Notes: a model not told the origin generated them from the letters alone. Positions 21,666 through 55,285 are shown, counted from the first letter of the stretch. The stretch: DNA of 64,000 bases from Candidatus Micrarchaeia archaeon (GCA_049966395.1 JBMFUT010000002.1:10583-74582), one strand, 5' to 3'. Program-made: numbers and translations.

Positions 21666-21764
21666 CTAATCCATATTTAATTTACCGCAAAAATATTAAA
21701 GAGTAATGCCTTAAGGCAAGCCGCATAAAATTTATAGTTTTGCAGTGCAATTCATAAATGCGCG

Positions 21765-21881
21765 GCGGGGTAGCTCAGGTGGTTAGAGCGCTAGACTCAT
21801 ATGCTAAGCATGATGAGTGATGAGCAATTTGCTATGACTAAGAAATCTAGAGGTCGCGTGTTCGAGTCCCGCCCCCGCCAT
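21765..21881 (+). tRNA. tRNA with anticodon CAU (elongator Met, or Ile2 if C34 is modified) containing a 43-nt intron after position 37
   Basis: Manual fold: acceptor GGCGGGG/CCCCGCC with A73, D arm GCUC-AGGUGGUUA-GAGC, anticodon stem CUAGA/UCUAG, loop CUCAUA|A, and T arm GCGUG-UUCGAGU-CCCGC with one U-C mismatch. It is not an initiator: it has G1-C72 and no GGG/CCC anticodon stem. Confidence 0.8.
21803..21845 (+). other. tRNA intron (canonical 37/38 position)
   Basis: UGCUAAGCAUGAUGAGUGAUGAGCAAUUUGCUAUGACUAAGAA. Intron UAUGA (21834-21838) can pair with UCAUA, which spans the anticodon. The boundary is ambiguous by 1 nt. Confidence 0.7.
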
Positions 21882-21892
21882 AAGGCGTATGC

Positions 21893-22294
21893 ATGGATTT
21901 CAGGATAAGAGAAACCGTAAGGCTATACGACACTGATGCTCAGGGCGTGATGCACTACGCAAGCTACTACAGGCTATTCACCGACGCCATAGACGAATTC
22001 AGGAAGAAGGTGCTGCCCGGGTACTCTCTAACTTCTGCCAGCGTTTCCTTTGTCACTGTAGAATCCCACGCAGAATACCTCAAGCCAGCAATGCTCGGCG
22101 ATGCTCTTTATGTGAATCTCTCTCCTAAGCTAATTTCTAGGAAGGCATTGAGGTTCGACATCAGCGTCTACAAAGGCGCAACATTGATATGCAAGGGGCA
22201 TACTGTGCAGCTGGCAATAGACGCAAGTAGATGGAAATCAGTCGAAATTCCATCGGAAATCATTAGCAAGATGGGTCTTCAGAAAAGGCATTAG
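21893..22294 (+). CDS. hotdog-fold acyl-CoA thioesterase (4HBT/YbgC-like)
   Basis: 133 aa. N-terminal VRLYDTDAQGVMHYASYYRLFTDA is the typical 4HBT catalytic-Asp segment. Confidence 0.7.
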   Translation: MDFRIRETVRLYDTDAQGVMHYASYYRLFTDAIDEFRKKVLPGYSLTSASVSFVTVESHAEYLKPAMLGDALYVNLSPKLISRKALRFDISVYKGATLICKGHTVQLAIDASRWKSVEIPSEIISKMGLQKRH

Positions 22295-22302
22295 TAGAAT
22301 TG

Positions 22303-22534
22303 TGGTGCGCCGTAGCCCTCCTTCTGTTTTAGGTGGCATTTGACTAAGCGGCTTGAGCCTTGCACGCTCACAGCCTGCGCATCGGTCGTTTCACCCGCAC
22401 CCGCGCGCTCGTCTTGTCATAGCCTAATGCGCGGCAGCGGTGCCGTTTCTGTGCCGAATTATGCTTTACGCAATGCAGGCTCTGCGTGGGAGGAGCTTCC
22501 TCCGTTGTGAAACGGTAAGCCACCCGCGCACCAC
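22303..22534 (-). ncRNA. rnpB: RNase P RNA, unusually compact (~232 nt)
   Basis: GC-rich island with no ORF. On the minus strand:
- P1 is GUGGUGCGC/GCGCACCAC.
- P2 is GGUGGC/GCCACC.
- P3 is a hairpin, CCGUU-UCAC-AACGG.
- CR-I-like GGAGGAAGCUCC; CR-V-like ACAGAAGGAGGGCUAC.
- P4 is AGC(U)CCUCC/GGAGGGCU with the conserved bulged U.
- CR-II/III/IV-like GGGUGAAAC, GCAAGGCUCAA and UAGUCAAAUG. Confidence 0.7.
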
Positions 22535-22556
22535 GATAACGATTATCCAGTTCAGG

Positions 22557-22564
22557 TATATAAA
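22557..22564 (-). promoter_or_regulatory. TATA box (TTTATATA on the minus strand) for the RNase P RNA
   Basis: Lies 23-30 nt upstream of the predicted RNA 5' end at 22534. Confidence 0.45.
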
Positions 22565-22640: not shown

Positions 22641-23033
22641 ATGGATGTCAAATACGCAATGCTTATGATTGCTGTCCTTTCAACTACGGTTTTCGCATCT
22701 AACAGCACAGCCACTTTGGTCACGAACAGCTACACTCCTCCAAAATACCTATCTGCAGTAATAGGCATACTGCTCATATTGGCAGTAATATTTATAGGCT
22801 TCGTTTTCATAAAGGACATAATAAAGACCATAGCTGTATTGATAATACTGATAATAGTCGCATCTGTGGCCTACAGCTTCCTCACAACAGGAAGCCTAAC
22901 TCTTGCTGGTTCCGCAGGGCTTATAAACAGCATAATAAGCGTTATCGGGGACATAGCCAAGCTTGCGCATCCGGTTTCATCTGTAATAAACAGCACAGCC
23001 GCGCCTGTCAGTACTGCGGCAAATGTCACGTGA
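22641..23033 (+). CDS. small secreted/membrane protein, hypothetical
   Basis: 130 aa with a signal peptide (MDVKYAMLMIAVLSTTVFA) and two further hydrophobic helices. Confidence 0.45.
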   Translation: MDVKYAMLMIAVLSTTVFASNSTATLVTNSYTPPKYLSAVIGILLILAVIFIGFVFIKDIIKTIAVLIILIIVASVAYSFLTTGSLTLAGSAGLINSIISVIGDIAKLAHPVSSVINSTAAPVSTAANVT

Positions 23034-30085: not shown

Positions 30086-30808
30086 ATGGAAATCGAAATA
30101 TCAGGCGTCGAGGAAAAAGTGATGGAAGATGCAAACCTCTACGCCATATTTAACGTCAAAATCATCGCAAATGGCGTGTCATATCCTATAAAACTCGCAT
30201 TTTCGATTACTGGCAACGGCAATATCGAAAAACTCAATGATTATTTCTCTGCGGTTATCTCGTCAATTGAAGAGATCTTGTCGCCAACGCTTGGCAAAGA
30301 GATTGTGAAGCCATTTGTCGCAGATCTAAAGGAAAGCACTGCCAAATTTTTGAGCGGGTATGGCAACCAGCCAGTAGGGTGGTACATAGAAGCAGGTAAC
30401 AACATATACTACAGCAGGTACACCTACATATCAATAGCAGATAAAGACGTTGTAAACAGTCTCATGTCTATACTAAAGTCTTCCACAGGCAACGCGTCAA
30501 GTGCACTTAAAGATGGCAGCATATTTACAGAGCTTATACCAACCGGTTCGACTTTGCAAGCAATTAGCATATGCAAGAATATGCATGTTAACTTGCCTTC
30601 GCACGCAATAAGAATAGATGCAAGGTCCAGGCTTGCTGATGAGGCAAAAGTTTTTACAAGCCTTCTTTTGGCATTGGATGTGATAGCAGCTGTTGATCTT
30701 TCACAGCGCAATATTGAATACACCACAGGCATAATGCACAACGCGTATCGGCAGTTCCAAGACGCAATGAAAAAGTCAAAAAGGGAAGACCTGCCAGGGT
30801 ATCAATAG
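30086..30808 (+). CDS. hypothetical protein
   Basis: 240-aa ORF with no recognisable motif. The in-frame open region upstream (from 29948) has no start codon. Confidence 0.4.
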   Translation: MEIEISGVEEKVMEDANLYAIFNVKIIANGVSYPIKLAFSITGNGNIEKLNDYFSAVISSIEEILSPTLGKEIVKPFVADLKESTAKFLSGYGNQPVGWYIEAGNNIYYSRYTYISIADKDVVNSLMSILKSSTGNASSALKDGSIFTELIPTGSTLQAISICKNMHVNLPSHAIRIDARSRLADEAKVFTSLLLALDVIAAVDLSQRNIEYTTGIMHNAYRQFQDAMKKSKREDLPGYQ

Positions 30809-30887: not shown

Positions 30888-31282
30888 GCAGATAATATAT
30901 ATTTCAAAAAGTTTATAATCCATTACAAGAAAACTGTGGCCTTCAGGCCGCTGATAAATTGTCCATTGCAGGTTAAGTTAATGGAGATAAATATATAAAT
31001 ATAGACTGCAATCCAATATTTTAGATGCATAAGGGCTTCGAGGCCACAAAATGCAAAGGAACGCCTCGCAACCTGTTCGCCGATACCGCGTATGACAGCT
31101 AGAAAAGGCAGACTGCAAAGTATATAAATACTTCTGCTCATAATACTTCCTTATATATGCAGTTAAAGAAGGATGTGCTTTACGGCAGGGCTTGACTGCA
31201 TTCGCCCAACGAGGGCGCTAAGCAGGCTCAAAAATCCAAATACTTTAGCTGTGATAGGCACTGGAAATTGCTAGATGATCTT

Positions 31283-31582
31283 ATGGCTGACCTTGGCAGA
31301 GACATAAGGCTTGCTGTGGACACCGGTAAGGTGGCCATAGGCGCAAAAGAAGCCGCTAAAGCTATAAACGCCGATTCGGCAAAGCTTGTGATCGTGGCTT
31401 CGAGAGGGATGAAGGAAGCCGTAGCAGACATGCTTCACACATGCAAGGTCGCAGGCGTGAAAGTAATAAAGTTCGAAGGCAGTGCCATGGAATTGGGAGC
31501 AACGTGCGGCAAGCCGTACTCAATAAACGCAATGGCAGTGCTGGAGCCTGGCAACTCAAACATACTTAGCGAAAACTATTAA
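31283..31582 (+). CDS. rpl30e: ribosomal protein L30e (eL30)
   Basis: MADLGRDIRLAVDTGKVAIGAKEAAKAINADSAKLVIVAS...GATCGKPYSINAMAVLEPGNSNIL. An alternative TTG start lies at 31268. Confidence 0.85.
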   Translation: MADLGRDIRLAVDTGKVAIGAKEAAKAINADSAKLVIVASRGMKEAVADMLHTCKVAGVKVIKFEGSAMELGATCGKPYSINAMAVLEPGNSNILSENY

Positions 31583-31595
31583 CAAAAGTGATTTA

Positions 31596-32024
31596 TTGGC
31601 GAAGGGAGAATTTGCTGCGAAGGTGCTCTCTAAGAAGAGGAAAGAGCAGCGTATGCTTAAAAAATGGTGGAAGAGGAAGCATTTCAAGCTGAAGCAGAAA
31701 TACGATCCTGTTGGCACAGTGCCTATGGCAAGGGCAATAGTGCTGCAGAAGTTCGCTTTGCAGCAGAAGCAGCCGCACAGCGGCCAGATAAAAGCCGTGA
31801 GGGTGCAGCTGATAAAGAACGGAAAAGTTGTAGGTGCCTACGTGCCTTACGATGGTGCAATAAGCTTCATAGACGAGCACGACGAGGTTACAATACAGGG
31901 CCTTGGAGGCTCGCAAAGAGGCCAGATGGGTTCGATACCAGGGCTCAAGTACAGAGTTATAGCAGTCAACGGTGCTGACCTTTTCGAAGTGGTCAAAGGC
32001 AAAAAGGAGAAGCCTAAGAGATGA
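31596..32024 (+). CDS. rps12: ribosomal protein S12 (uS12), TTG start, divergent decoding loop
   Basis: ...VRVQLIKNGKVVGAYVPYDGAISFIDEHDEVTIQGLGG...IPGLKYRVIAVNG...GKKEKPKR. The TTG start is supported by the conserved N-terminal GEFAAKVLSKKRK. Confidence 0.9.
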   Translation: MAKGEFAAKVLSKKRKEQRMLKKWWKRKHFKLKQKYDPVGTVPMARAIVLQKFALQQKQPHSGQIKAVRVQLIKNGKVVGAYVPYDGAISFIDEHDEVTIQGLGGSQRGQMGSIPGLKYRVIAVNGADLFEVVKGKKEKPKR

Positions 32025-32797
32025 TGATTATGGATCAAGCAGAGAGCAACAACGCAAAAGCTGCAGAAGCGGCACAGGCGCCAGCGCCTGAAGCAGCAGC
32101 CCCCGCAGCACCAAAGAAGAGACAGAGGAAGCAGGCTGCGGCAAAGGAAGTGCCTTCTGAAAAGGCGGAGAAGCCGCAGAAGGCAAAAGTGCAGAGCATT
32201 CTGCTTTTCGACAAGTACAGCTTCGACGATATAGTTGTTGAGGACAGGAGCCTCGCGGAATACATGAACATGAGTGTGAGAAGATACCCTAACATATACG
32301 GCAGGAGGAAAAATCACGCCTATTACACATCCCACATAAACATCGTCGAAAGGCTTGTAAACAAGCTGATGAGGGGAGGCACAGGGCGCAAAGTTGGCGG
32401 CAAGGTCATAAGAACTGAAGGAAGGCTGCAGGGCAAGAAAATAAAGACAATGCACATAGTTGAGGATGCATTCGACATAATAAACAGCAAGACTGGAAAG
32501 AATCCTCTCCAGAAGTTCATAGAGGCGCTGGAGCACGCCGCACCTATAGAAGACACTACAAGAGTAAGATACGGAGGCATAACTTATAATGTTGCCGTGG
32601 ACATAAGCTCAAAAAGGAGGGTCGACGTCGCGCTGAAGAACATAGCCCTGGCGGCAATAACCGGCGGCTTCAACAGCAGGAAGAGCATTTCTGAGGCTCT
32701 GGCAGACGAGATAATACTCGCAGCTAATGGAGATCCAAACAGCTATGCAATAAAGAAGCGCACTGACGCGGAAAGGATGGCAAGAAGCGCAAGATAA
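32021..32797 (+). CDS. rps7: ribosomal protein S7 (uS7) with a ~58-aa low-complexity N-terminal extension
   Basis: Core motifs IVERLVNKLMR, TGKNPLQKFIEALEHAAPIEDTTRVRYGGITYNVAVDISSKRRVDVALKNI and the terminal ERMARSAR. The start overlaps the S12 stop (ATGATGA). Confidence 0.9.
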   Translation: MMIMDQAESNNAKAAEAAQAPAPEAAAPAAPKKRQRKQAAAKEVPSEKAEKPQKAKVQSILLFDKYSFDDIVVEDRSLAEYMNMSVRRYPNIYGRRKNHAYYTSHINIVERLVNKLMRGGTGRKVGGKVIRTEGRLQGKKIKTMHIVEDAFDIINSKTGKNPLQKFIEALEHAAPIEDTTRVRYGGITYNVAVDISSKRRVDVALKNIALAAITGGFNSRKSISEALADEIILAANGDPNSYAIKKRTDAERMARSAR

Positions 32798-32811
32798 AGA
32801 TAGTGGTTCTT

Positions 32812-35004
32812 ATGGTAAGAAAAGAGTTTGTGGCTGAAGAGGCAGCTCACATAATGAGAAACATAAGCAAGATCAGGAACGTAGCCATAATAGCGCACGT
32901 CCACCACGGAAAGACGACGCTGACAGACTCTCTGCTGGCAAAGGCGGGCATAATAGCAAAGACTGTTGCAGGGGAAGTGCTGTATACTAATTACGACGTC
33001 ATAGAGAAGGACAGGCGCATGACAATAAAATCCGCAAACATATCACTTGCCTTTTCTTACAACAATGAAGATTACATAATAAACCTGATAGACACGCCGG
33101 GTCACGTTGATTTCGGAGGCCACGTCACAAGGTCGATGAGGGCTGTGGATGGAGTAGTGCTTGTTGTAGACCCAGTGGAAGGCATAATGCCTCAGACAGA
33201 AACAGTGCTGAGGCAGGCGCTGAAGGAGCGCGCCAAGCCAGTGCTTTTCATAAACAAGGTGGACAGGCTTCTTAACGAGCTGAGGCTGAACCAGGACCAG
33301 GTTTACGAAAGGCTTCTTGCGCTTATAAACGAGGTAAATTCTCTGATAGACAGGTATGTGCCAGACGAATTTGCTGGAAAGTGGCACGTAAGCGTCGAGA
33401 ACGGAAGCGTGTGCATAGGATCTGCCTACAAGAAGTGGGCATTGTCAATAAAGATGATGCAGCGCTACAAGGTAACTTTCAAGGACATTTACGAATACAC
33501 TGCAAAGAACGACGAGGAAAAGCTCCAGGAGGTTGCGCCTATAGAAGAGGCGGTTCTCTCGATGATAATAGAGCACCTGCCACCGCCAAGCGAGGCGCAG
33601 CGCTACAGGATACCGCAAATATGGCATGGAGACATAAACAGCGACATAGGCAAGGCGATGGTAAATGTAGATGCCAACGCCCCAGCTTGCATTGCAATAT
33701 TCGGCATAGTCTACGACCAGCACAGCGGAGAGGTTGCTATAGGAAGGGTCTTCAGCGGCACTGTCAAAAAGGGTACAGAGTTATACGTTTCGGGGAAGCC
33801 AGATCCACAGCGCGTCCAGCTTGTCGGAATATTCATGGGCCCTGATAGGGTCACAGTGGACAGCATATCTGCCGGCAACATAGCCGCGATAGTAGGCATA
33901 AAAGATGTTTCAATAGGCGACACTGCAAGCGAGGTAGTAATTGAGCCATTCGAGCAAATAAAGCACTATTCGCCTCCTGTGGTTACCAAAGCCATAGAGG
34001 CAAAGGATACAAAGGACACCATGAAGCTCATAGAGGCTTTGAGAGAGCTTTCTAAATCTGACCCCACGCTGGTAGTGGAAATAGACCAGGAGACAGGCGA
34101 GCACAAAATAAGCGGAATGGGCGAGCTTCATCTTGACGTTATAGAGACAAAAATACGCGACGCATATGGAATTCCGATAGTGACGAGCGAGCCTATTGTG
34201 GTTTATAGGGAAACAATTGAGAAGGAAGTAAAAGACATAGAAGGCAAAGCGCCTAACAAGCATTCCAGATTCTATGTAAACGTAGCACCTCTTGAGCAGG
34301 GAGTTATAGACCTTATAGAAAACGGCACCCTAAAGGAGGGCAGGCCAAAGGGAAAGCAGTATGTCGACGCTCTCATAGAAGCAGGGCTGTCAAGGGAAGA
34401 GGCAAAGGGAGTGGAGGACATATCAAACAGGAGCATGCTCATAGACGCAACGCACGGAGTGCAATACATGAACGAAGTCATGGAGCTGCTTATAGAAGGT
34501 TTCGAAGAGGCAATGAACGACGGGCCTCTCGCAAGGGAAAAATGTTCTGGTATAAAGGTCTCAATAACAGATGCCACGATACACGAAGATCCGGTGCACA
34601 GAGGTCCGGCGCAGATTATACCTGCAATGAGAAGGCCCATATACGCCGGAATGCTAACTGCGGGGGTTGTGCTTCTCGAGCCAAAGCAAAAATTCACTAT
34701 TAACGCTCCTCAAGAATACATGTCCGACATAATAGGCATGCTTCAGAGCAAGAGGGGGCAGATAATCGATATACAGCAGGAAAAAGAGCAGGTGACAATA
34801 GTAGCAAAGATGCCCGTGGCAGAAGTGATAAAGGGCTTCTCAGACGAAATGAGGAGTATAACTAAGGGCAGGGCAATATGGTACCCAGAATATGCCGGCT
34901 ACGAAAAGATGCCGAAAGATTTGCAGGAGCAGGTAGTAAGGGAAATAAGGAAGAGGAAGGGACAGCCGCCGGAGCCTCCGGTGCCGAGCCAGTTCCTCGA
35001 CTGA
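32812..35004 (+). CDS. fusA: translation elongation factor 2 (aEF-2)
   Basis: G1 motif AHVHHGKTTLTDSLL, DTPGHVDF, NKVDR, and the diphthamide site HEDPVHRGPAQI. The start is taken at the ATG at 32812. Confidence 0.93.
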   Translation: MVRKEFVAEEAAHIMRNISKIRNVAIIAHVHHGKTTLTDSLLAKAGIIAKTVAGEVLYTNYDVIEKDRRMTIKSANISLAFSYNNEDYIINLIDTPGHVDFGGHVTRSMRAVDGVVLVVDPVEGIMPQTETVLRQALKERAKPVLFINKVDRLLNELRLNQDQVYERLLALINEVNSLIDRYVPDEFAGKWHVSVENGSVCIGSAYKKWALSIKMMQRYKVTFKDIYEYTAKNDEEKLQEVAPIEEAVLSMIIEHLPPPSEAQRYRIPQIWHGDINSDIGKAMVNVDANAPACIAIFGIVYDQHSGEVAIGRVFSGTVKKGTELYVSGKPDPQRVQLVGIFMGPDRVTVDSISAGNIAAIVGIKDVSIGDTASEVVIEPFEQIKHYSPPVVTKAIEAKDTKDTMKLIEALRELSKSDPTLVVEIDQETGEHKISGMGELHLDVIETKIRDAYGIPIVTSEPIVVYRETIEKEVKDIEGKAPNKHSRFYVNVAPLEQGVIDLIENGTLKEGRPKGKQYVDALIEAGLSREEAKGVEDISNRSMLIDATHGVQYMNEVMELLIEGFEEAMNDGPLAREKCSGIKVSITDATIHEDPVHRGPAQIIPAMRRPIYAGMLTAGVVLLEPKQKFTINAPQEYMSDIIGMLQSKRGQIIDIQQEKEQVTIVAKMPVAEVIKGFSDEMRSITKGRAIWYPEYAGYEKMPKDLQEQVVREIRKRKGQPPEPPVPSQFLD

Positions 35005-35090
35005 AACAAAATGCGAAGCAATAAGTATTTATATATACTCATTCAAATAGGAAACCACTGATTGTTCCACCAATGAGACGAGGTGCTGTA

Positions 35091-35552
35091 ATGGCAAAAT
35101 CATACGTGAAATTCGAAGTATCTAAAGAAGTGGCCGACAAGGCCTACGAGGCAGTGAGAGCAGCAAAGCAGAACGGGACAGTGAAGAAAGGGATGAACGA
35201 GACGACAAAGAGCATAGAACGCGGCCTTGCGAGCCTAGTTGTAATTGCCGAAGACGTCGAGCCAGAGGAAGTGGTAATGCACTTGCCAATGCTTTGCGAG
35301 CAGAAGAAGATTCCATTTGTTTATGTCCCTGCCAAGCTCAACCTGGGCAAGGCAATAGGACTAAACGTGGGCTGTGCTGCAGTTGCAATAGAAAAGATGG
35401 GCGCCGCCGAGCCTATGGTAAAAGAAATAGTCGCCAAGGTGACAGGAAAGCCTGCAACTTCGCAATCAAAGCCAGTTGGAGAAGAAGCTCCGAAGCAGGA
35501 GCAGAAGCCCAAGCAGCAAAAGCAGAAGCAAGAGCAAAAACCAGAAGCGTAA
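35091..35552 (+). CDS. rpl7ae: ribosomal protein L7Ae (K-turn binding) with a K/Q/E-rich C-terminal tail
   Basis: [64 protein letters not shown] lies 7 nt upstream of the ATG at 35091. The tail is ...[23 protein letters not shown]. Confidence 0.9.
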
Positions 35553-35571
35553 ATTTGCAAGTGTGTTTTGA

Positions 35572-35802
35572 ATGGCTGAAGAGCAACAAAAATTTGCGGG
35601 ATACCTGGCAGAAGTAGTGGAAGTGCTCAAGGTAAGGACCGGCATATACGGCGAAATAAAGCAAATAATGTGCAAGATTCTCGAGGGCGACCGCGACAAG
35701 GGAAGGGTCATAAGGAGGAACGTGGTTGGCAAGGTGAAGGCAGGAGACATAATAAGGCTGCCTGACACTAGCAGAGAAGCGAGGGAGATAAAGGCAAGGT
35801 AG
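35572..35802 (+). CDS. rps28e: ribosomal protein S28e (eS28)
   Basis: [27 protein letters not shown]...[30 protein letters not shown]. Confidence 0.9.
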
Positions 35803-45678: not shown

Positions 45679-46275
45679 ATGATACCAAATATAGACGAAA
45701 TAACCAAGGAGCTCTCTGCGCTTCAGAAGAGGCAGGACAGGGTGATGGATCTTTCAAGATCCATAATAAGACTGACAGGCTATGCGATAACAGCAATACA
45801 CAACCGGGACTTCAAGTCCTCTTCGGCTTCTATGAAGGAACTGCAAGCGCTCATGAAGGAGCTCTCAGTCGCAGAAAAAGGCTTCGAATACTACTCCCAG
45901 CAAGCTCATCAGGAGTTCACAGAGCTCATGGTATTCATGTCTGTAATCAAGGATGGTAAAATACCATCAATGAAAGAAATAGGCGAGACGGCAGTGCCCT
46001 ATCTGCTTGGCATCATGGACGTCGTCGGCGAGCTTAAAAGGGAGGCCTACGAGGCGCTCAGGAAGGGCGATGCCGCTGAAGCAGAGTCATACTACGAGAA
46101 GATGCAGGGAATATACGATGCAACGAGGCACATAAGGTTTGCGGAGTCTCTCATGCCGGGCTTCAGGAAGAAGCAGGATGTTGCCAGGATACTGATAGAA
46201 GGCACAGGCAGCGATCTTCTTGGAGTGGCGCAAAGTAAGCACAGACACTCTTCACCAGGAAAACGCAACAAATAA
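45679..46275 (+). CDS. translin-family protein
   Basis: All-helical ~198 aa. ...AVPYLLGIMDVVGELKREAYEALRKGD... matches the translin YLxGxxDxxGELxR motif. Confidence 0.55.
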   Translation: MIPNIDEITKELSALQKRQDRVMDLSRSIIRLTGYAITAIHNRDFKSSSASMKELQALMKELSVAEKGFEYYSQQAHQEFTELMVFMSVIKDGKIPSMKEIGETAVPYLLGIMDVVGELKREAYEALRKGDAAEAESYYEKMQGIYDATRHIRFAESLMPGFRKKQDVARILIEGTGSDLLGVAQSKHRHSSPGKRNK

Positions 46276-46321
46276 AAGGTTTAGACAGCTAATTTGCGGT
46301 ATTACAAATAAAGTGGTTAGT

Positions 46322-46900
46322 ATGAGAACCTTAAAAGCGCAAAGCGCAATGGAATACCTAATGACATACGGTTGGGCTATACTTATAATAGCCGTAGTGC
46401 TAGGGGCATTGTTCTCTTTGGGGGTGTTCAGCACCGCCTCTTTAGTTGGCACAACTTGCGTTGCAAGCTCTGGATACCTTTGCAGCAATCCCATATTGCA
46501 CGGTGGCTATTTCAACGTTACCATAGGCCAGGCTACCGGCACAGGCTGGTATAGTGCAATTGTATGCTTTGCGCCAGCCAACAGCACTGCCTCATTCTCA
46601 TCGATGTCGGCGCCAAGTGGCAATACTATTTCATTTTCTTCGATTCAGCTTTCTACTACTACAACTACCACTACCATCCCGCCACAGTTAAGTACGGTGA
46701 GCTGCCCGAGCGGTACGATAGCAGGCTTTGCAGCCCCACAGGCAATTGCGAGCGGGCAGCAGGTAAGCGCGTCTTTCAACGGCCTGCCAAGCACCGTAGG
46801 GGCAACAACATCAGGGGCGATATGGGCGGTATACCAAACTACAAGCTCAAGCCCTGTGTATGCAACTCAGATAGCAGTAGTTACACTCAAGGCGGTGTAA
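46322..46900 (+). CDS. class III signal peptide (type IV pilin-like) protein 1, with poly-Thr linker
   Basis: MRTLKAQSAMEYLMTYGWAILIIAVVLGALF: a basic leader, a KA|Q prepilin-peptidase-type site, Glu at +5, and a hydrophobic helix. There is an internal STTTTTTTIPP tract. Confidence 0.8.
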   Translation: MRTLKAQSAMEYLMTYGWAILIIAVVLGALFSLGVFSTASLVGTTCVASSGYLCSNPILHGGYFNVTIGQATGTGWYSAIVCFAPANSTASFSSMSAPSGNTISFSSIQLSTTTTTTTIPPQLSTVSCPSGTIAGFAAPQAIASGQQVSASFNGLPSTVGATTSGAIWAVYQTTSSSPVYATQIAVVTLKAV

Positions 46901-47586: not shown

Positions 47587-47813
47587 CAAAGTGCAATAGT
47601 AAGGTTTAAATAGGTTTTATTTGCAGTATTACCAGGAAAGTGGTTAGTATGAGAACCTTAAAAGCGCAAAGCGCAATGGAATACCTAATGACATACGGTT
47701 GGGCTATACTTATAATAGCCGTAGTGCTAGGGGCATTGTTCAGCCTCGGCGTCTTCAGCGGTGCTTCACTGTTGGGAACAACATGCATCGCTAGCAGCGG
47801 ATACCTGTGCAGC
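47587..47813 (+). repeat. 227-bp direct repeat copy B (promoter plus the first 55 codons of pilin gene 3)
   Basis: See copy A. Confidence 0.85.
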
Positions 47814-48152
47814 AGCCCTATATTACACGGTGGTACTCTAACTGCAACAGTAGGTCAAGCAACTGGAGCCACATGGAGTGCAGCTACTCTCTGCTTGGTA
47901 GGCAGTGGTGTGGTACCGACAACATCATGCACAAATGTTCCTGGCGCAAATGTCATAGTTAGCGGAGGACTAGTGTCAGGGCAGACAGCAACACCTCAAT
48001 TTACTGCATATGTAAATTCTGCTGGTGGAGCAACTTCTCTGCCTAGCTCTGTAGGCTCCACATTCTCAGGCTACATATACGCAGTCTACACAGTCGGTAG
48101 TCAAAGCGGCCTTATGACACAGATAGCAACTATCACTGCAAAAGCAAGCTAA
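47649..48152 (+). CDS. class III signal peptide (type IV pilin-like) protein 3
   Basis: Same leader as genes 1 and 2. The central segment SSPILHGGTLTATVGQATGATW resembles gene 1 (SNPILHGGYFNVTIGQATGTGW). Confidence 0.8.
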   Translation: MRTLKAQSAMEYLMTYGWAILIIAVVLGALFSLGVFSGASLLGTTCIASSGYLCSSPILHGGTLTATVGQATGATWSAATLCLVGSGVVPTTSCTNVPGANVIVSGGLVSGQTATPQFTAYVNSAGGATSLPSSVGSTFSGYIYAVYTVGSQSGLMTQIATITAKAS

Positions 48153-54146: not shown

Positions 54147-54818
54147 ATGAGGCAGAATGGCAAGAGATACCTGAATTCAGCAATAATAGTCAGGGCGGAG
54201 GCAAAGTGCAGGCTCAGCACAATAGAAAAGGCTATGGAAGGGTATCCCTCTGCCAAGGCTATTCGCCGCGGAACTTCACTGCTTTATTCCATAGAAGAAG
54301 ATAGCGACCGTTATTACGAAATAGAACTTTCGCAGAACTACATGCGCTTAGGCGTATTCTCTGAATCATCGCCCCTTTATTTCATGAGGGATGCCATGCT
54401 GAAATTGCTGAGCATTTGTTCATTCCTTCAGGGCAAGTATTCTGTAGACATTTCAAGCATATTTCCATACCTTGTAGAGTTGCTTGCAGACGGACAGATT
54501 GGCCATTATCGCGAGGTCTCAGCTGGTATACAATACACGCAAAGCGACTCCTACATCGTTTTAGCAAAGCGGATAAATTTCTTGCGAGCTGAAAAATCGG
54601 CATTGGAAGCAAAGCTGAAAAGTGCAACTGCCGAGGCCGATAGCCTTTTGGAAGGCATTCTGGTGTCGGAAGCAGTAAAGACCCCCTCTTCTATAGATGC
54701 GCTTTCAGAAAAATACAAGGTAAGCGCTAGAAGCTTTTCTTTGGCGCTTGAAAACCTGAAAAAAAAGGGATGGAAAGTGATAAACAACGGAAATCTTTTT
54801 ACTCTGGTGAACATATGA
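54147..54818 (+). CDS. hypothetical soluble protein of the operon
   Basis: 223-aa ORF starting 4 nt after the ATPase stop. It has a central coiled-coil (…LRAEKSALEAKLKSATAEADSLLEG…). Confidence 0.5.
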   Translation: MRQNGKRYLNSAIIVRAEAKCRLSTIEKAMEGYPSAKAIRRGTSLLYSIEEDSDRYYEIELSQNYMRLGVFSESSPLYFMRDAMLKLLSICSFLQGKYSVDISSIFPYLVELLADGQIGHYREVSAGIQYTQSDSYIVLAKRINFLRAEKSALEAKLKSATAEADSLLEGILVSEAVKTPSSIDALSEKYKVSARSFSLALENLKKKGWKVINNGNLFTLVNI

Positions 54819-55285
54819 ACAGCAGCATAGTGAATCTTCTGTTTCAGCTCTTGCCAATAGCGCTCGGCGTTGCTATTCTTGTTTCATTGAGGTCAATGAA
54901 TTTTGTCAAGCGCTATGCGATTCTGCACTTTCAAGATGAGCCAGGCAGCCCAGGAAGCAGCGCCTCAGAGCTGCCAGAGGCAAACGGCTTCAAGGAATTC
55001 GCATATGGCGAACTTATAATCAACGGAATATTCGAGGGCAGAAAAAACAGCATTGAGCATCGCGCCATGTCAGAACTATTGCTGGTAAGCGCATTGTCGT
55101 TGCACAGGCTGTCCGGAGCCTTCAATCCTCGCAATCACGACATCCTGAAGGTTGCCGTAAGCTCGTACGATGATGCGGCTAGCACTGTCTGCGCAGCGTG
55201 CAGCTATAGCAAGGCGGGAGGAATACTGCTTTCATACATGATAAATTACAAGCTTGACATAGAGGTCATTACACGAACATTATAG
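54815..55285 (+). CDS. hypothetical single-pass membrane protein of the operon
   Basis: The ATG at 54815 overlaps the upstream stop (ATGA). N-terminal helix: IVNLLFQLLPIALGVAILVSL. Confidence 0.5.
   Translation: MNSSIVNLLFQLLPIALGVAILVSLRSMNFVKRYAILHFQDEPGSPGSSASELPEANGFKEFAYGELIINGIFEGRKNSIEHRAMSELLLVSALSLHRLSGAFNPRNHDILKVAVSSYDDAASTVCAACSYSKAGGILLSYMINYKLDIEVITRTL

Follow-up and report, generated by a model that had tools for sequence, protein, structure and literature searches.

A compact RNase P RNA gene with a type M-like layout in a Micrarchaeota (DPANN) genome

The locus described here raises the question of whether a GC-rich island in the genome of a Candidatus Micrarchaeia archaeon encodes the RNA subunit of the tRNA 5'-end trimming enzyme RNase P, and, if it does, which of the known archaeal types this RNA resembles and how far it has been reduced. 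The island lies within a stretch of 64,000 nucleotides (64 kb; hereafter the window), and its GC content is 59% against approximately 40-45% in the flanks, in line with the original prediction, which had proposed a bona fide but strongly miniaturised RNase P RNA of about 232 nt on the minus strand at 22303-22534. The whole window was compared with Rfam 15, and the archaeal RNase P family RF00373, which belongs to clan CL00002, was matched on the minus strand with 105.3 bits (gathering score 84, E = 2.1e-28), the alignment spanning model positions 1-288 of 288 and window positions 22302-22534. The RNA is 233 nt long, one base longer than had been proposed, and RNA position p corresponds to window position 22535 - p. 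The locus is a genuine RNase P RNA gene of Micrarchaeota (DPANN), the host being a small-genome archaeon as supposed, and it is of an already-known kind, with a type M-like layout.

A single copy was found in the window, both in the Rfam scan and with our own covariance model (R1, described below), which scored the RNA at 262 bits and had no other match in the window. A rescan of the locus at E up to 10 gave no second Rfam family; one lower-scoring match of the same clan was left unnamed and unlisted. The gene is flanked on one side by a thioesterase gene at 21893-22294 (Pfam 4HBT_2; its protein gave no hit in an exact-match index), as had been read from the sequence, and on the other by an ORF of 130 amino acids for which no family match was found. 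The description of the region as free of ORFs was nearly right, since three mechanical ORFs of 44-56 amino acids overlap the RNA, and these are not credible as genes. Rfam also detected an intron-containing tRNA in the window, in agreement with ARAGORN when introns were allowed. The elements that had been listed on the minus strand, namely a 9-bp inverted repeat, GGUGGC/GCCACC, a short hairpin, GGAGGAAGCUCC and ACAGAAGGAGGGCUAC, are all present. An essential housekeeping RNA gene is now correctly annotated, and any Rfam-based pipeline would detect the same gene; apart from a few details particular to its lineage, there is nothing out of the ordinary about it. Its identity, structure, conservation, promoter motif and architecture were observed as follows.

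Homologues were collected by BLASTN and by a pattern search. Among the matches listed by BLASTN there were about 35 homologues (34 of them close), with 71-83% identity and nearly all full-length; the closest came from metagenome-assembled genomes labelled Micrarchaeota or Micrarchaeaceae, with a few labelled 'archaeon' and one 'Marsarchaeota', and none of the matches listed was from a genome of the same species. In the NCBI taxonomy the phylum Micrarchaeota is now Microcaldota, of the kingdom Nanobdellati (DPANN). An origin from Archaeoglobus, suggested at first by a GC content of roughly 46% and by the type M layout, was rejected in view of these Micrarchaeota matches. Core Micrarchaeota RNAs that lie wholly within their contigs measure 229-241 nt, and a search with model R1 recovered only this same form of RNA from each related genome locus. 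The pattern, aimed at RNase P RNAs with a short P15, consisted of GCAAG, a gap of 4-24, CR-IV, a gap of 6-12 and ACAGAAGG, and was run over GTDB with one genome per species; at least 120 archaeal species matched in this single scan, and capped-P15 RNase P RNAs were thereby found in lineages that include Micrarchaeota, Aenigmatarchaeota, Iainarchaeum, Altiarchaeota, ANME-1, Methanobrevibacter and Thermoplasmata, among others. In the window, the 44-nt CR-IV/CR-V pattern has one match, and none was found in 100 shuffles of the window; with the Rfam E-value, this puts the identification well outside what chance would give.

The structure was derived from an alignment of the window RNA with 19 homologues (20 sequences), for which the Rfam alignment served as the starting point and was mended at P7 and P11, where it was out of register. 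The Rfam register was rejected there, as it marked non-pairs in both helices; in the comparative alignment P7 has six unbroken base pairs, GCCUGC/GCAGGC. A covariance model, R1, was then built from the 20-sequence alignment with P4 left out, and 54 RNAs from Micrarchaeota and other lineages were aligned to it. Of 1253 cells in the 20-sequence alignment, 96.9% are standard pairs, compared with 29-44% in slid controls in which the 3' partners were shifted by 1-3 columns; 31 of the 63 pairs have changed on both sides, and a covariation score as high as the observed one was reached in none of 500 shuffles. Compensatory change is seen in every helix that varies (P1, P2, P3, P4, P5, P7, P9, P11 and P12). 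Comparative analysis and a search with the archaeal Rfam model had both been suggested as checks on the prediction. A minimum free energy fold of the single sequence (z = -2.2) gives P1 and P12 and not the pseudoknotted core; such partial recovery is usual for pseudoknotted RNA, and the fold was dropped as a source of structure in favour of the comparative analysis.

The catalytic core is complete. P1 is formed by the 9-bp terminal inverted repeat GUGGUGCGC/GCGCACCAC, its 5' strand (RNA 1-10, window 22525-22534) pairing with RNA 223-233 (22302-22312); all of its cells are paired and three of its pairs have changes on both sides. P2 joins GGUGGC (RNA 11-16, 22519-22524) to GCCACC (RNA 198-203, 22332-22337), with 97.5% of cells paired and three of six pairs compensatory, and is followed by the P3 hairpin CCGUU-UCAC-AACGG (RNA 20-33, 22502-22515), where four of five pairs are compensatory. 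CR-I, GAGGAAGCUCC (RNA 33-43), overlaps the 5' strand of P4, AGC[U]CCUCC (RNA 38-46), the two together occupying 22489-22502, and CR-V, ACAGAAGGAGGGCUA (RNA 208-222, 22313-22327), includes the P4 3' strand GGAGGGCU (RNA 214-221). The pairing AGC[U]CCUCC/GGAGGGCU, which had been proposed as P4 with its bulged U, holds in 100% of 421 cells over 54 sequences, with four of eight pairs compensatory, and this support is independent because P4 was absent from the model that built the alignment. The sets of pairs seen around the bulge are AAG[U]CC/GGCUU, AGU[U]CC/GGACU, AAU[U]CU/AGAUU, AGG[U]CU/AGCCU and AGC[U]CU/AGGCU, and the bulged U41 itself is invariant in 34 of 34 core sequences. The pairs that flank the bulged U are G-C and C-G in the window RNA and A-U and G-C in the Rfam consensus, a compensatory difference. 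P5 (RNA 47-50 with 169-172, within 22363-22488) encloses the whole specificity domain and is paired in all cells, with two of four pairs compensatory. CR-IV, GCUUAGUCAAAUGC (RNA 186-199, 22336-22349), was placed by both Rfam and the 20-sequence alignment. CR-I to CR-V stand in canonical order and are almost wholly invariant across the 20 homologues, with few positions that vary. The CR-II/III/IV-like motifs listed beforehand were partly correctly assigned: GGGUGAAAC is CR-III and UAGUCAAAUG is CR-IV, whereas GCAAGGCUCAA corresponds to J5/15 and the P15 hairpin, and the true CR-II, ACAGAAACG (RNA 83-91), was missing from the list.

The specificity domain had been described as reduced, and this is true of P8, which is lost, and of P12, which is lost in part; the domain is trimmed yet intact in its core, with CR-II, CR-III, P7, P9, P10/P11 and P12 kept. 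P7 pairs GCCUGC (RNA 55-60) with GCAGGC (RNA 157-162; 22373-22480 overall), four of its six pairs being compensatory. Only 13 nt (RNA 61-73) separate P7 from P10, and they hold the sole hairpin of this interval, UGC-GUAAA-GCA (RNA 63-73, 22462-22472), which Rfam aligns to P9 while deleting the P8 columns. Since these 13 nt form one 3-bp hairpin abutting P10, the hairpin is P9 and P8 is absent; the cells of P9 are 100% paired, with two of three pairs compensatory. P11 has 4 bp in the window RNA, where two bulged nucleotides (A76, U77) separate it from P10; the two pairs of P10 are formed in 13-14 of the 20 homologues and are weakly supported, and two homologues (L030 and L033) have a continuous P10/P11 stem of 6-7 bp. 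CR-II, ACAGAAACG (22444-22452), matches the Rfam consensus and is invariant from C84 to G91 in 20 of 20 sequences, A83 being variable. P12 (RNA 95-140, about 46 nt, 22395-22440) consists of two stems, of 4 bp and 6 bp, on either side of a 2x2 internal loop, with eight of ten pairs compensatory, and abuts CR-III, GUGAAACG (RNA 141-148, 22387-22394), in which positions 142-148 are invariant and G141 varies.

The largest deletion is found in the catalytic domain, distal to P15, and not in the specificity domain. GCAAG and CR-IV are separated by GGC-UCAA-GCC alone (RNA 176-185, 22350-22359), a capped P15 hairpin with an invariant GGC/GCC stem, and the 37-nt insert of the Rfam model is cut to 2 nt, from which it follows that L15, P16, P17 and P6 are absent.

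The gene appears to have a promoter of its own. A TATA box, TTTATATA, is located at 22557-22564 on the minus strand, exactly at -30 to -23 relative to G1 as the original prediction had it, and is preceded by a purine-rich, BRE-like AAAGAAAA. This is the spacing expected of an archaeal TATA box. A match to TTTATATA with at most two mismatches, ending at -21 to -28 and mostly at -23 or -24, is found in 16 of the 20 homologues, the promoter flanks of which are otherwise unrelated in sequence. The position of the box supports a transcription start that would lie at G1, with which P1 begins, or close to it.

We then compared the RNA with the known archaeal types. Type A, as represented by Pyrococcus furiosus, Methanothermobacter and the 288-position RF00373 consensus, belongs to the same family and clan and shares CR-I to CR-V, P1-P5, P7, P9-P12 and the archaeal type of promoter with the window RNA, but it also has P8, the L15 internal loop, P16/P17 with the K-turn KT1 and the P6 pseudoknot. 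As the window RNA has none of these, a type A assignment was rejected. Type M is defined by the loss of P8 and by the lack of L15, P16, P17 and P6 (PMC3579882, PMC1874661, PMC2475606), with an elongated, uninterrupted P10/P11 as a third feature (PMC1874661, citing Harris 2001). The window RNA shares with type M the core with its bulged-U P4, the absence of P8, a capped P15 without L15, P16, P17 and P6, an L7Ae-type K-turn on P12 and a size class of about 230-250 nt. It differs from type M in that its P10/P11 is not clearly elongated and continuous, its P12 has one K-turn or K-loop and not the double K-turn (KT2/KT3), it has an additional conserved K-turn-like motif at P5/P7, and it belongs to Micrarchaeota (DPANN), which are not among the lineages from which type M was described. 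Type M has been described only in Methanococcales and Archaeoglobus (PMC3579882), and none was found in metagenomes in 2007 (PMC1874661); in the library that we searched, no paper connects DPANN or Micrarchaeota to type M RNase P RNA, and nothing relevant came up on RNase P in Micrarchaeota or Micrarchaeum.

With regard to size, the RNA had been called strongly miniaturised; it is compact but not exceptional, and its layout has already been published. Lengths as defined by Rfam are 230 nt for a 'Marsarchaeota'-labelled, Micrarchaeota-like RNA, 231 nt for Iainarchaeum, 236 nt for an uncultured Archaeoglobaceae, 241 nt for Methanobacteriota SZUA-1452, 246 nt for Nanobdellati, 249 nt for Anstonellaceae and 251 nt for Altiarchaeota, then 261-274 nt for Thermoplasmata, 264 nt for Methanolliviera, 286 nt for Methanobrevibacter, 296 nt for ANME-1, 307 nt for Methanomethylicus and 481 nt for Haloarcula; the RNAs of Aenigmatarchaeota measure 236-258 nt. 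A length of 233 nt is normal for the type M layout, because the Archaeoglobaceae RNA of 236 nt, from the lineage that gave the first description of type M, has the same deletions. Several DPANN RNAs of 229-251 nt likewise have the elements distal to P15 deleted. In Iainarchaeum, Aenigmatarchaeota and Nanobdellati P8 is absent and P15 short and capped, as in the window RNA, whereas the Altiarchaeota RNA, also compact and with a short capped P15, keeps P8. These other DPANN RNAs have low sequence identity to the window RNA. One Micrarchaeota RNA (L102) is shorter still, at 208 nt, with P12 likewise almost entirely gone. The reductions by which type M was defined occur far more widely than in its two original lineages.

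The known sites of K-turns in RNase P RNA are P12 and P16-17, and L7Ae binds the P12 K-turns in type M RNAs (PMC5499556, PMC9371926). In M. jannaschii, M. maripaludis and P. furiosus a double K-turn in P12 binds two copies of L7Ae (PMC5499556, PMC9371926), and the double K-turn (KT2/KT3) is described as conserved in Methanococcales (PMC5499556). It is a trait of the Methanococcales lineage and lies outside the original definition of type M. In the window RNA, the tip of P12 reads GC|UAU|GA-CAAGAC-GA|GC (RNA 112-128, 22407-22423). In a K-turn, a 3-nt bulge with U as its last base lies between a canonical stem and tandem G.A and A.G pairs. The P12 tip fits this rule and is closed by a short 6-nt loop, making it a K-turn or K-loop, and G112, C113, U116, G117, A118, C124, G125, A126, G127 and C128 are invariant in 34 of 34 core sequences. 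A double K-turn was rejected for this P12: only one pattern GC|NNU|GA...GA|GC is found, the distal P12b stem is absent, and the register supported by covariation leaves no room for a second set of G.A pairs. By analogy with the studied RNAs, L7Ae most likely binds this invariant tip.

A candidate K-turn was also seen at the junction of P5 and P7, where a bulged strand UGU-GA-G (RNA 163-168, 22367-22372) faces CAGA (RNA 51-54, 22481-22484). Read as a K-turn, it would have P7 as the canonical helix, U163-U165 as the bulge, and G166.A54 and A167.G53 as sheared pairs. Each of C51, A52, G53, A54, U165, G166, A167 and G168 is conserved in 31-34 of the 34 core Micrarchaeota sequences, and the flanking P5 and P7 covary. 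The Micrarchaeota motif has one extra nucleotide (C51 or A52) relative to the K-turn consensus, and the same site has a canonical K-turn pattern in four of four Aenigmatarchaeota, CAU-C-GA-[stem] / [stem]-NAU-GA-G-AUG, the canonical stem of which covaries; one of the four (L047) has an A.A mismatch at the first position of the stem. The Aenigmatarchaeota RNAs have both the P12-tip K-loop and the P5/P7 pattern in common with the window RNA. The motif is not present in the Archaeoglobaceae RNA examined, and no K-turn at P5/P7 of RNase P RNA was described in the literature that we searched. The sequence pattern and its invariance suggest a putative K-turn at this site, and any function that it may have would be read from the same evidence. 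Should the P5/P7 motif truly bind L7Ae, it would be a further case of a protein replacing lost RNA structure in a minimal RNP, and would offer a testable model for the folding of RNase P in small-genome archaea.

Taken together, these data indicate that this Micrarchaeota (DPANN) locus very probably encodes, in a single copy, the catalytic RNA of an RNase P made of RNA and protein, with its own TATA/BRE promoter and a type M layout. Two other readings would deny the RNA either its function or its specificity domain. The gene could be a decaying, non-functional copy, with the working RNase P RNA encoded elsewhere in the genome; the view here extends over 64 kb of that genome, and the Rfam score of 105 bits is modest in comparison with 145-215 bits for many other archaea. 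The lower score is, however, due to the deletion of P8 and P16/17 and the shorter P12, and all helices are kept by compensatory change across about 35 species, the universally conserved regions are intact, the position of the promoter is conserved, and the same form is the sole one recovered from each related genome locus, which makes decay extremely improbable. A minimal RNA resembling type T, without a functional specificity domain, was suggested by the shortness of the RNA and by the comparison drawn in the original prediction. Type T RNAs, found in Thermoproteaceae (Rfam RNaseP-T), lack most of the specificity domain and escape RF00373 (PMC3579882); they resemble the window RNA in being shortened archaeal RNase P RNAs, whereas the window RNA is detected by RF00373 and keeps the specificity-domain core, its CR-II, CR-III, P7, P9, P10/P11 and P12 being present and covarying. 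No type T family was among the matches listed at E up to 10, where the one lower-scoring clan match was unnamed and unlisted. The conserved specificity-domain core refutes the type T reading, to which we give hardly any weight.

It could also be argued that the RNA represents a new structural class, a DPANN-specific minimal form apart from A, M and T, the likeness of which to type M would be convergent and in which RNA and proteins would be arranged differently, with an extra L7Ae on a K-turn at the P5/P7 hinge. The narrow published range of type M and the phylogenetic distance of Micrarchaeota from Methanococcales and Archaeoglobus are consistent with this, as are the single K-loop of P12 in place of the double K-turn (PMC5499556), the apparent interruption of P10/P11, and the CAGA / NNUGAG motif at P5/P7, conserved in core Micrarchaeota, canonical in the Aenigmatarchaeota and absent from Archaeoglobaceae. 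However, the RNA is covered over its full length by the standard archaeal Rfam model, with a score above the gathering threshold; it lacks P8 as well as L15, P16, P17 and P6, the two main hallmarks of type M; and it is as large as the type M RNA of Archaeoglobaceae. The K-turn reading draws on sequence pattern and invariance only, and the Micrarchaeota motif departs from the consensus by its extra nucleotide. We regard a separate class as very unlikely. A related proposal takes the type M-like layout as the normal one across several DPANN lineages, and not as something peculiar to Methanococcales and Archaeoglobus, and adds the P5/P7 K-turn in Micrarchaeota and Aenigmatarchaeota, where an extra L7Ae would fix the angle between the two domains and replace the RNA-RNA struts that went with P8 and P16/P17; we regard this as a tentative idea, possible but rather doubtful.

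For the preferred reading, a type M-like RNase P RNA working with proteins, the expected mechanism can be outlined. Transcription would proceed from the TATA/BRE promoter and start at or near G1, the ends of the transcript being predicted from the promoter and the helices. The RNA folds into the universal core, with P1-P4, the P4 pseudoknot with its bulged U, CR-I, CR-IV and CR-V, and, in view of its family and by analogy with the type M enzymes that have been studied, would act as the catalytic subunit in the Mg2+-dependent removal of the 5' leader of pre-tRNA. Without proteins, type M RNAs show no activity in trans, owing to the loss of P8 and L15 (PMC2475606). As this RNA, too, has neither P8 to bind the T-loop of the tRNA nor L15 to bind its 3' end, it would probably depend on proteins for substrate binding and folding, with Pop5-Rpp30 needed at the catalytic domain and Rpp21-Rpp29-L7Ae at the specificity domain, where the P12 K-loop would be the anchor of L7Ae. 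The RNP form of RNase P is universal in Archaea, and HARP is absent from all DPANN genomes examined (PMC6380272).

A set of 38 ORFs from the 64-kb window was compared with Pfam, 10 of the ORFs a second time with the E-value limit raised to 5, and Pop5, Rpp30, Rpp21, Rpp29 and PIN_5/HARP were not found among them. The one expected protein subunit of five that was found there is L7Ae, the K-turn-binding protein known as the fifth subunit of archaeal RNase P; its gene lies at 35073-35552 on the plus strand (Pfam Ribosomal_L7Ae, 94.9 bits) and adjoins the gene for S28e at 35572-35802. A gene for L30e is also present in the window, upstream of the S12 and S7 genes.

A pattern scan of genome contigs turned up RNase P RNAs whose P15 is short and capped, leaving no room for L15, P16 or P17, in at least 120 species of archaea (L001-L120). 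The set includes Methanobrevibacter (~286 nt) and ANME-1/Methanophagales (~296 nt), as well as Thermoplasmata, Methanomassiliicoccales, Methanolliviera and several phyla of DPANN. The P15-distal module has been lost far beyond the classical type M lineages, Methanococcales and Archaeoglobus. One match, L065, comes from a bin labelled Acidobacteriia, a label that is probably the result of mis-binning. The RNase P RNA of one Micrarchaeota MAG (isolate MAG 297; L102:2767-2974, plus strand) is only 208 nt long, with a few nucleotides (UUCG) in place of almost the whole of P12, K-loop included, and its reduction clearly goes beyond that of the window RNA.

At the P5/P7 junction, the window RNase P RNA carries a CAGA / NNUGAG motif (22481-22484 and 22367-22372, minus strand) that is conserved among Micrarchaeota RNase P RNAs and, judged from its sequence, fits a K-turn with one extra nucleotide. 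In the four Aenigmatarchaeota RNase P RNAs that we compared (L095, L047, L049 and L029), this site follows the canonical K-turn pattern, whereas neither the Archaeoglobaceae RNA nor the Rfam consensus has the motif; in its place, the consensus shows a bulge of 8 nt on the 5' side.

Some 420 nt away from the gene for the RNase P RNA is a tRNA gene with an intron (21764-21880, plus strand; mature tRNA of 74 nt, intron of 43 nt). It was detected by the Rfam tRNA model with 53 bits but was not called by ARAGORN at default settings; with introns enabled, ARAGORN assigned it as Ser(CGA) with the intron at 35/36, although the long variable arm is absent, in contrast with this assignment. Placing the intron at the canonical 37/38 position would make the anticodon CAU, for Met or Ile2. 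Within the intron are the K-turn-like strings AUGAUGA, GUGAUGAGC and GCUAUGAC, the last of which is also found in the P12 K-loop of the RNase P RNA.

A divergent 130-aa ORF (22641-23033, plus strand), which runs away from the promoter region of the RNase P RNA, has no match in Pfam. Many further ORFs in the window are without a family match, among them 30086-30808, 46220-46900, 47640-48152, 54147-54818 and 54770-55285, as is typical for DPANN genomes.

The window also holds a cluster of ribosomal and translation genes on the plus strand (31268-35802), comprising L30e (31268-31582), S12 (31596-32024), S7 (32021-32797), a 733-aa ORF (32803-35004) that probably encodes EF-2, L7Ae, identified by its Pfam domain (35073-35552), and S28e (35572-35802). 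Since the Pfam domain begins only at residue 22 of the 159-aa L7Ae ORF, the real start codon may lie downstream of the listed one.
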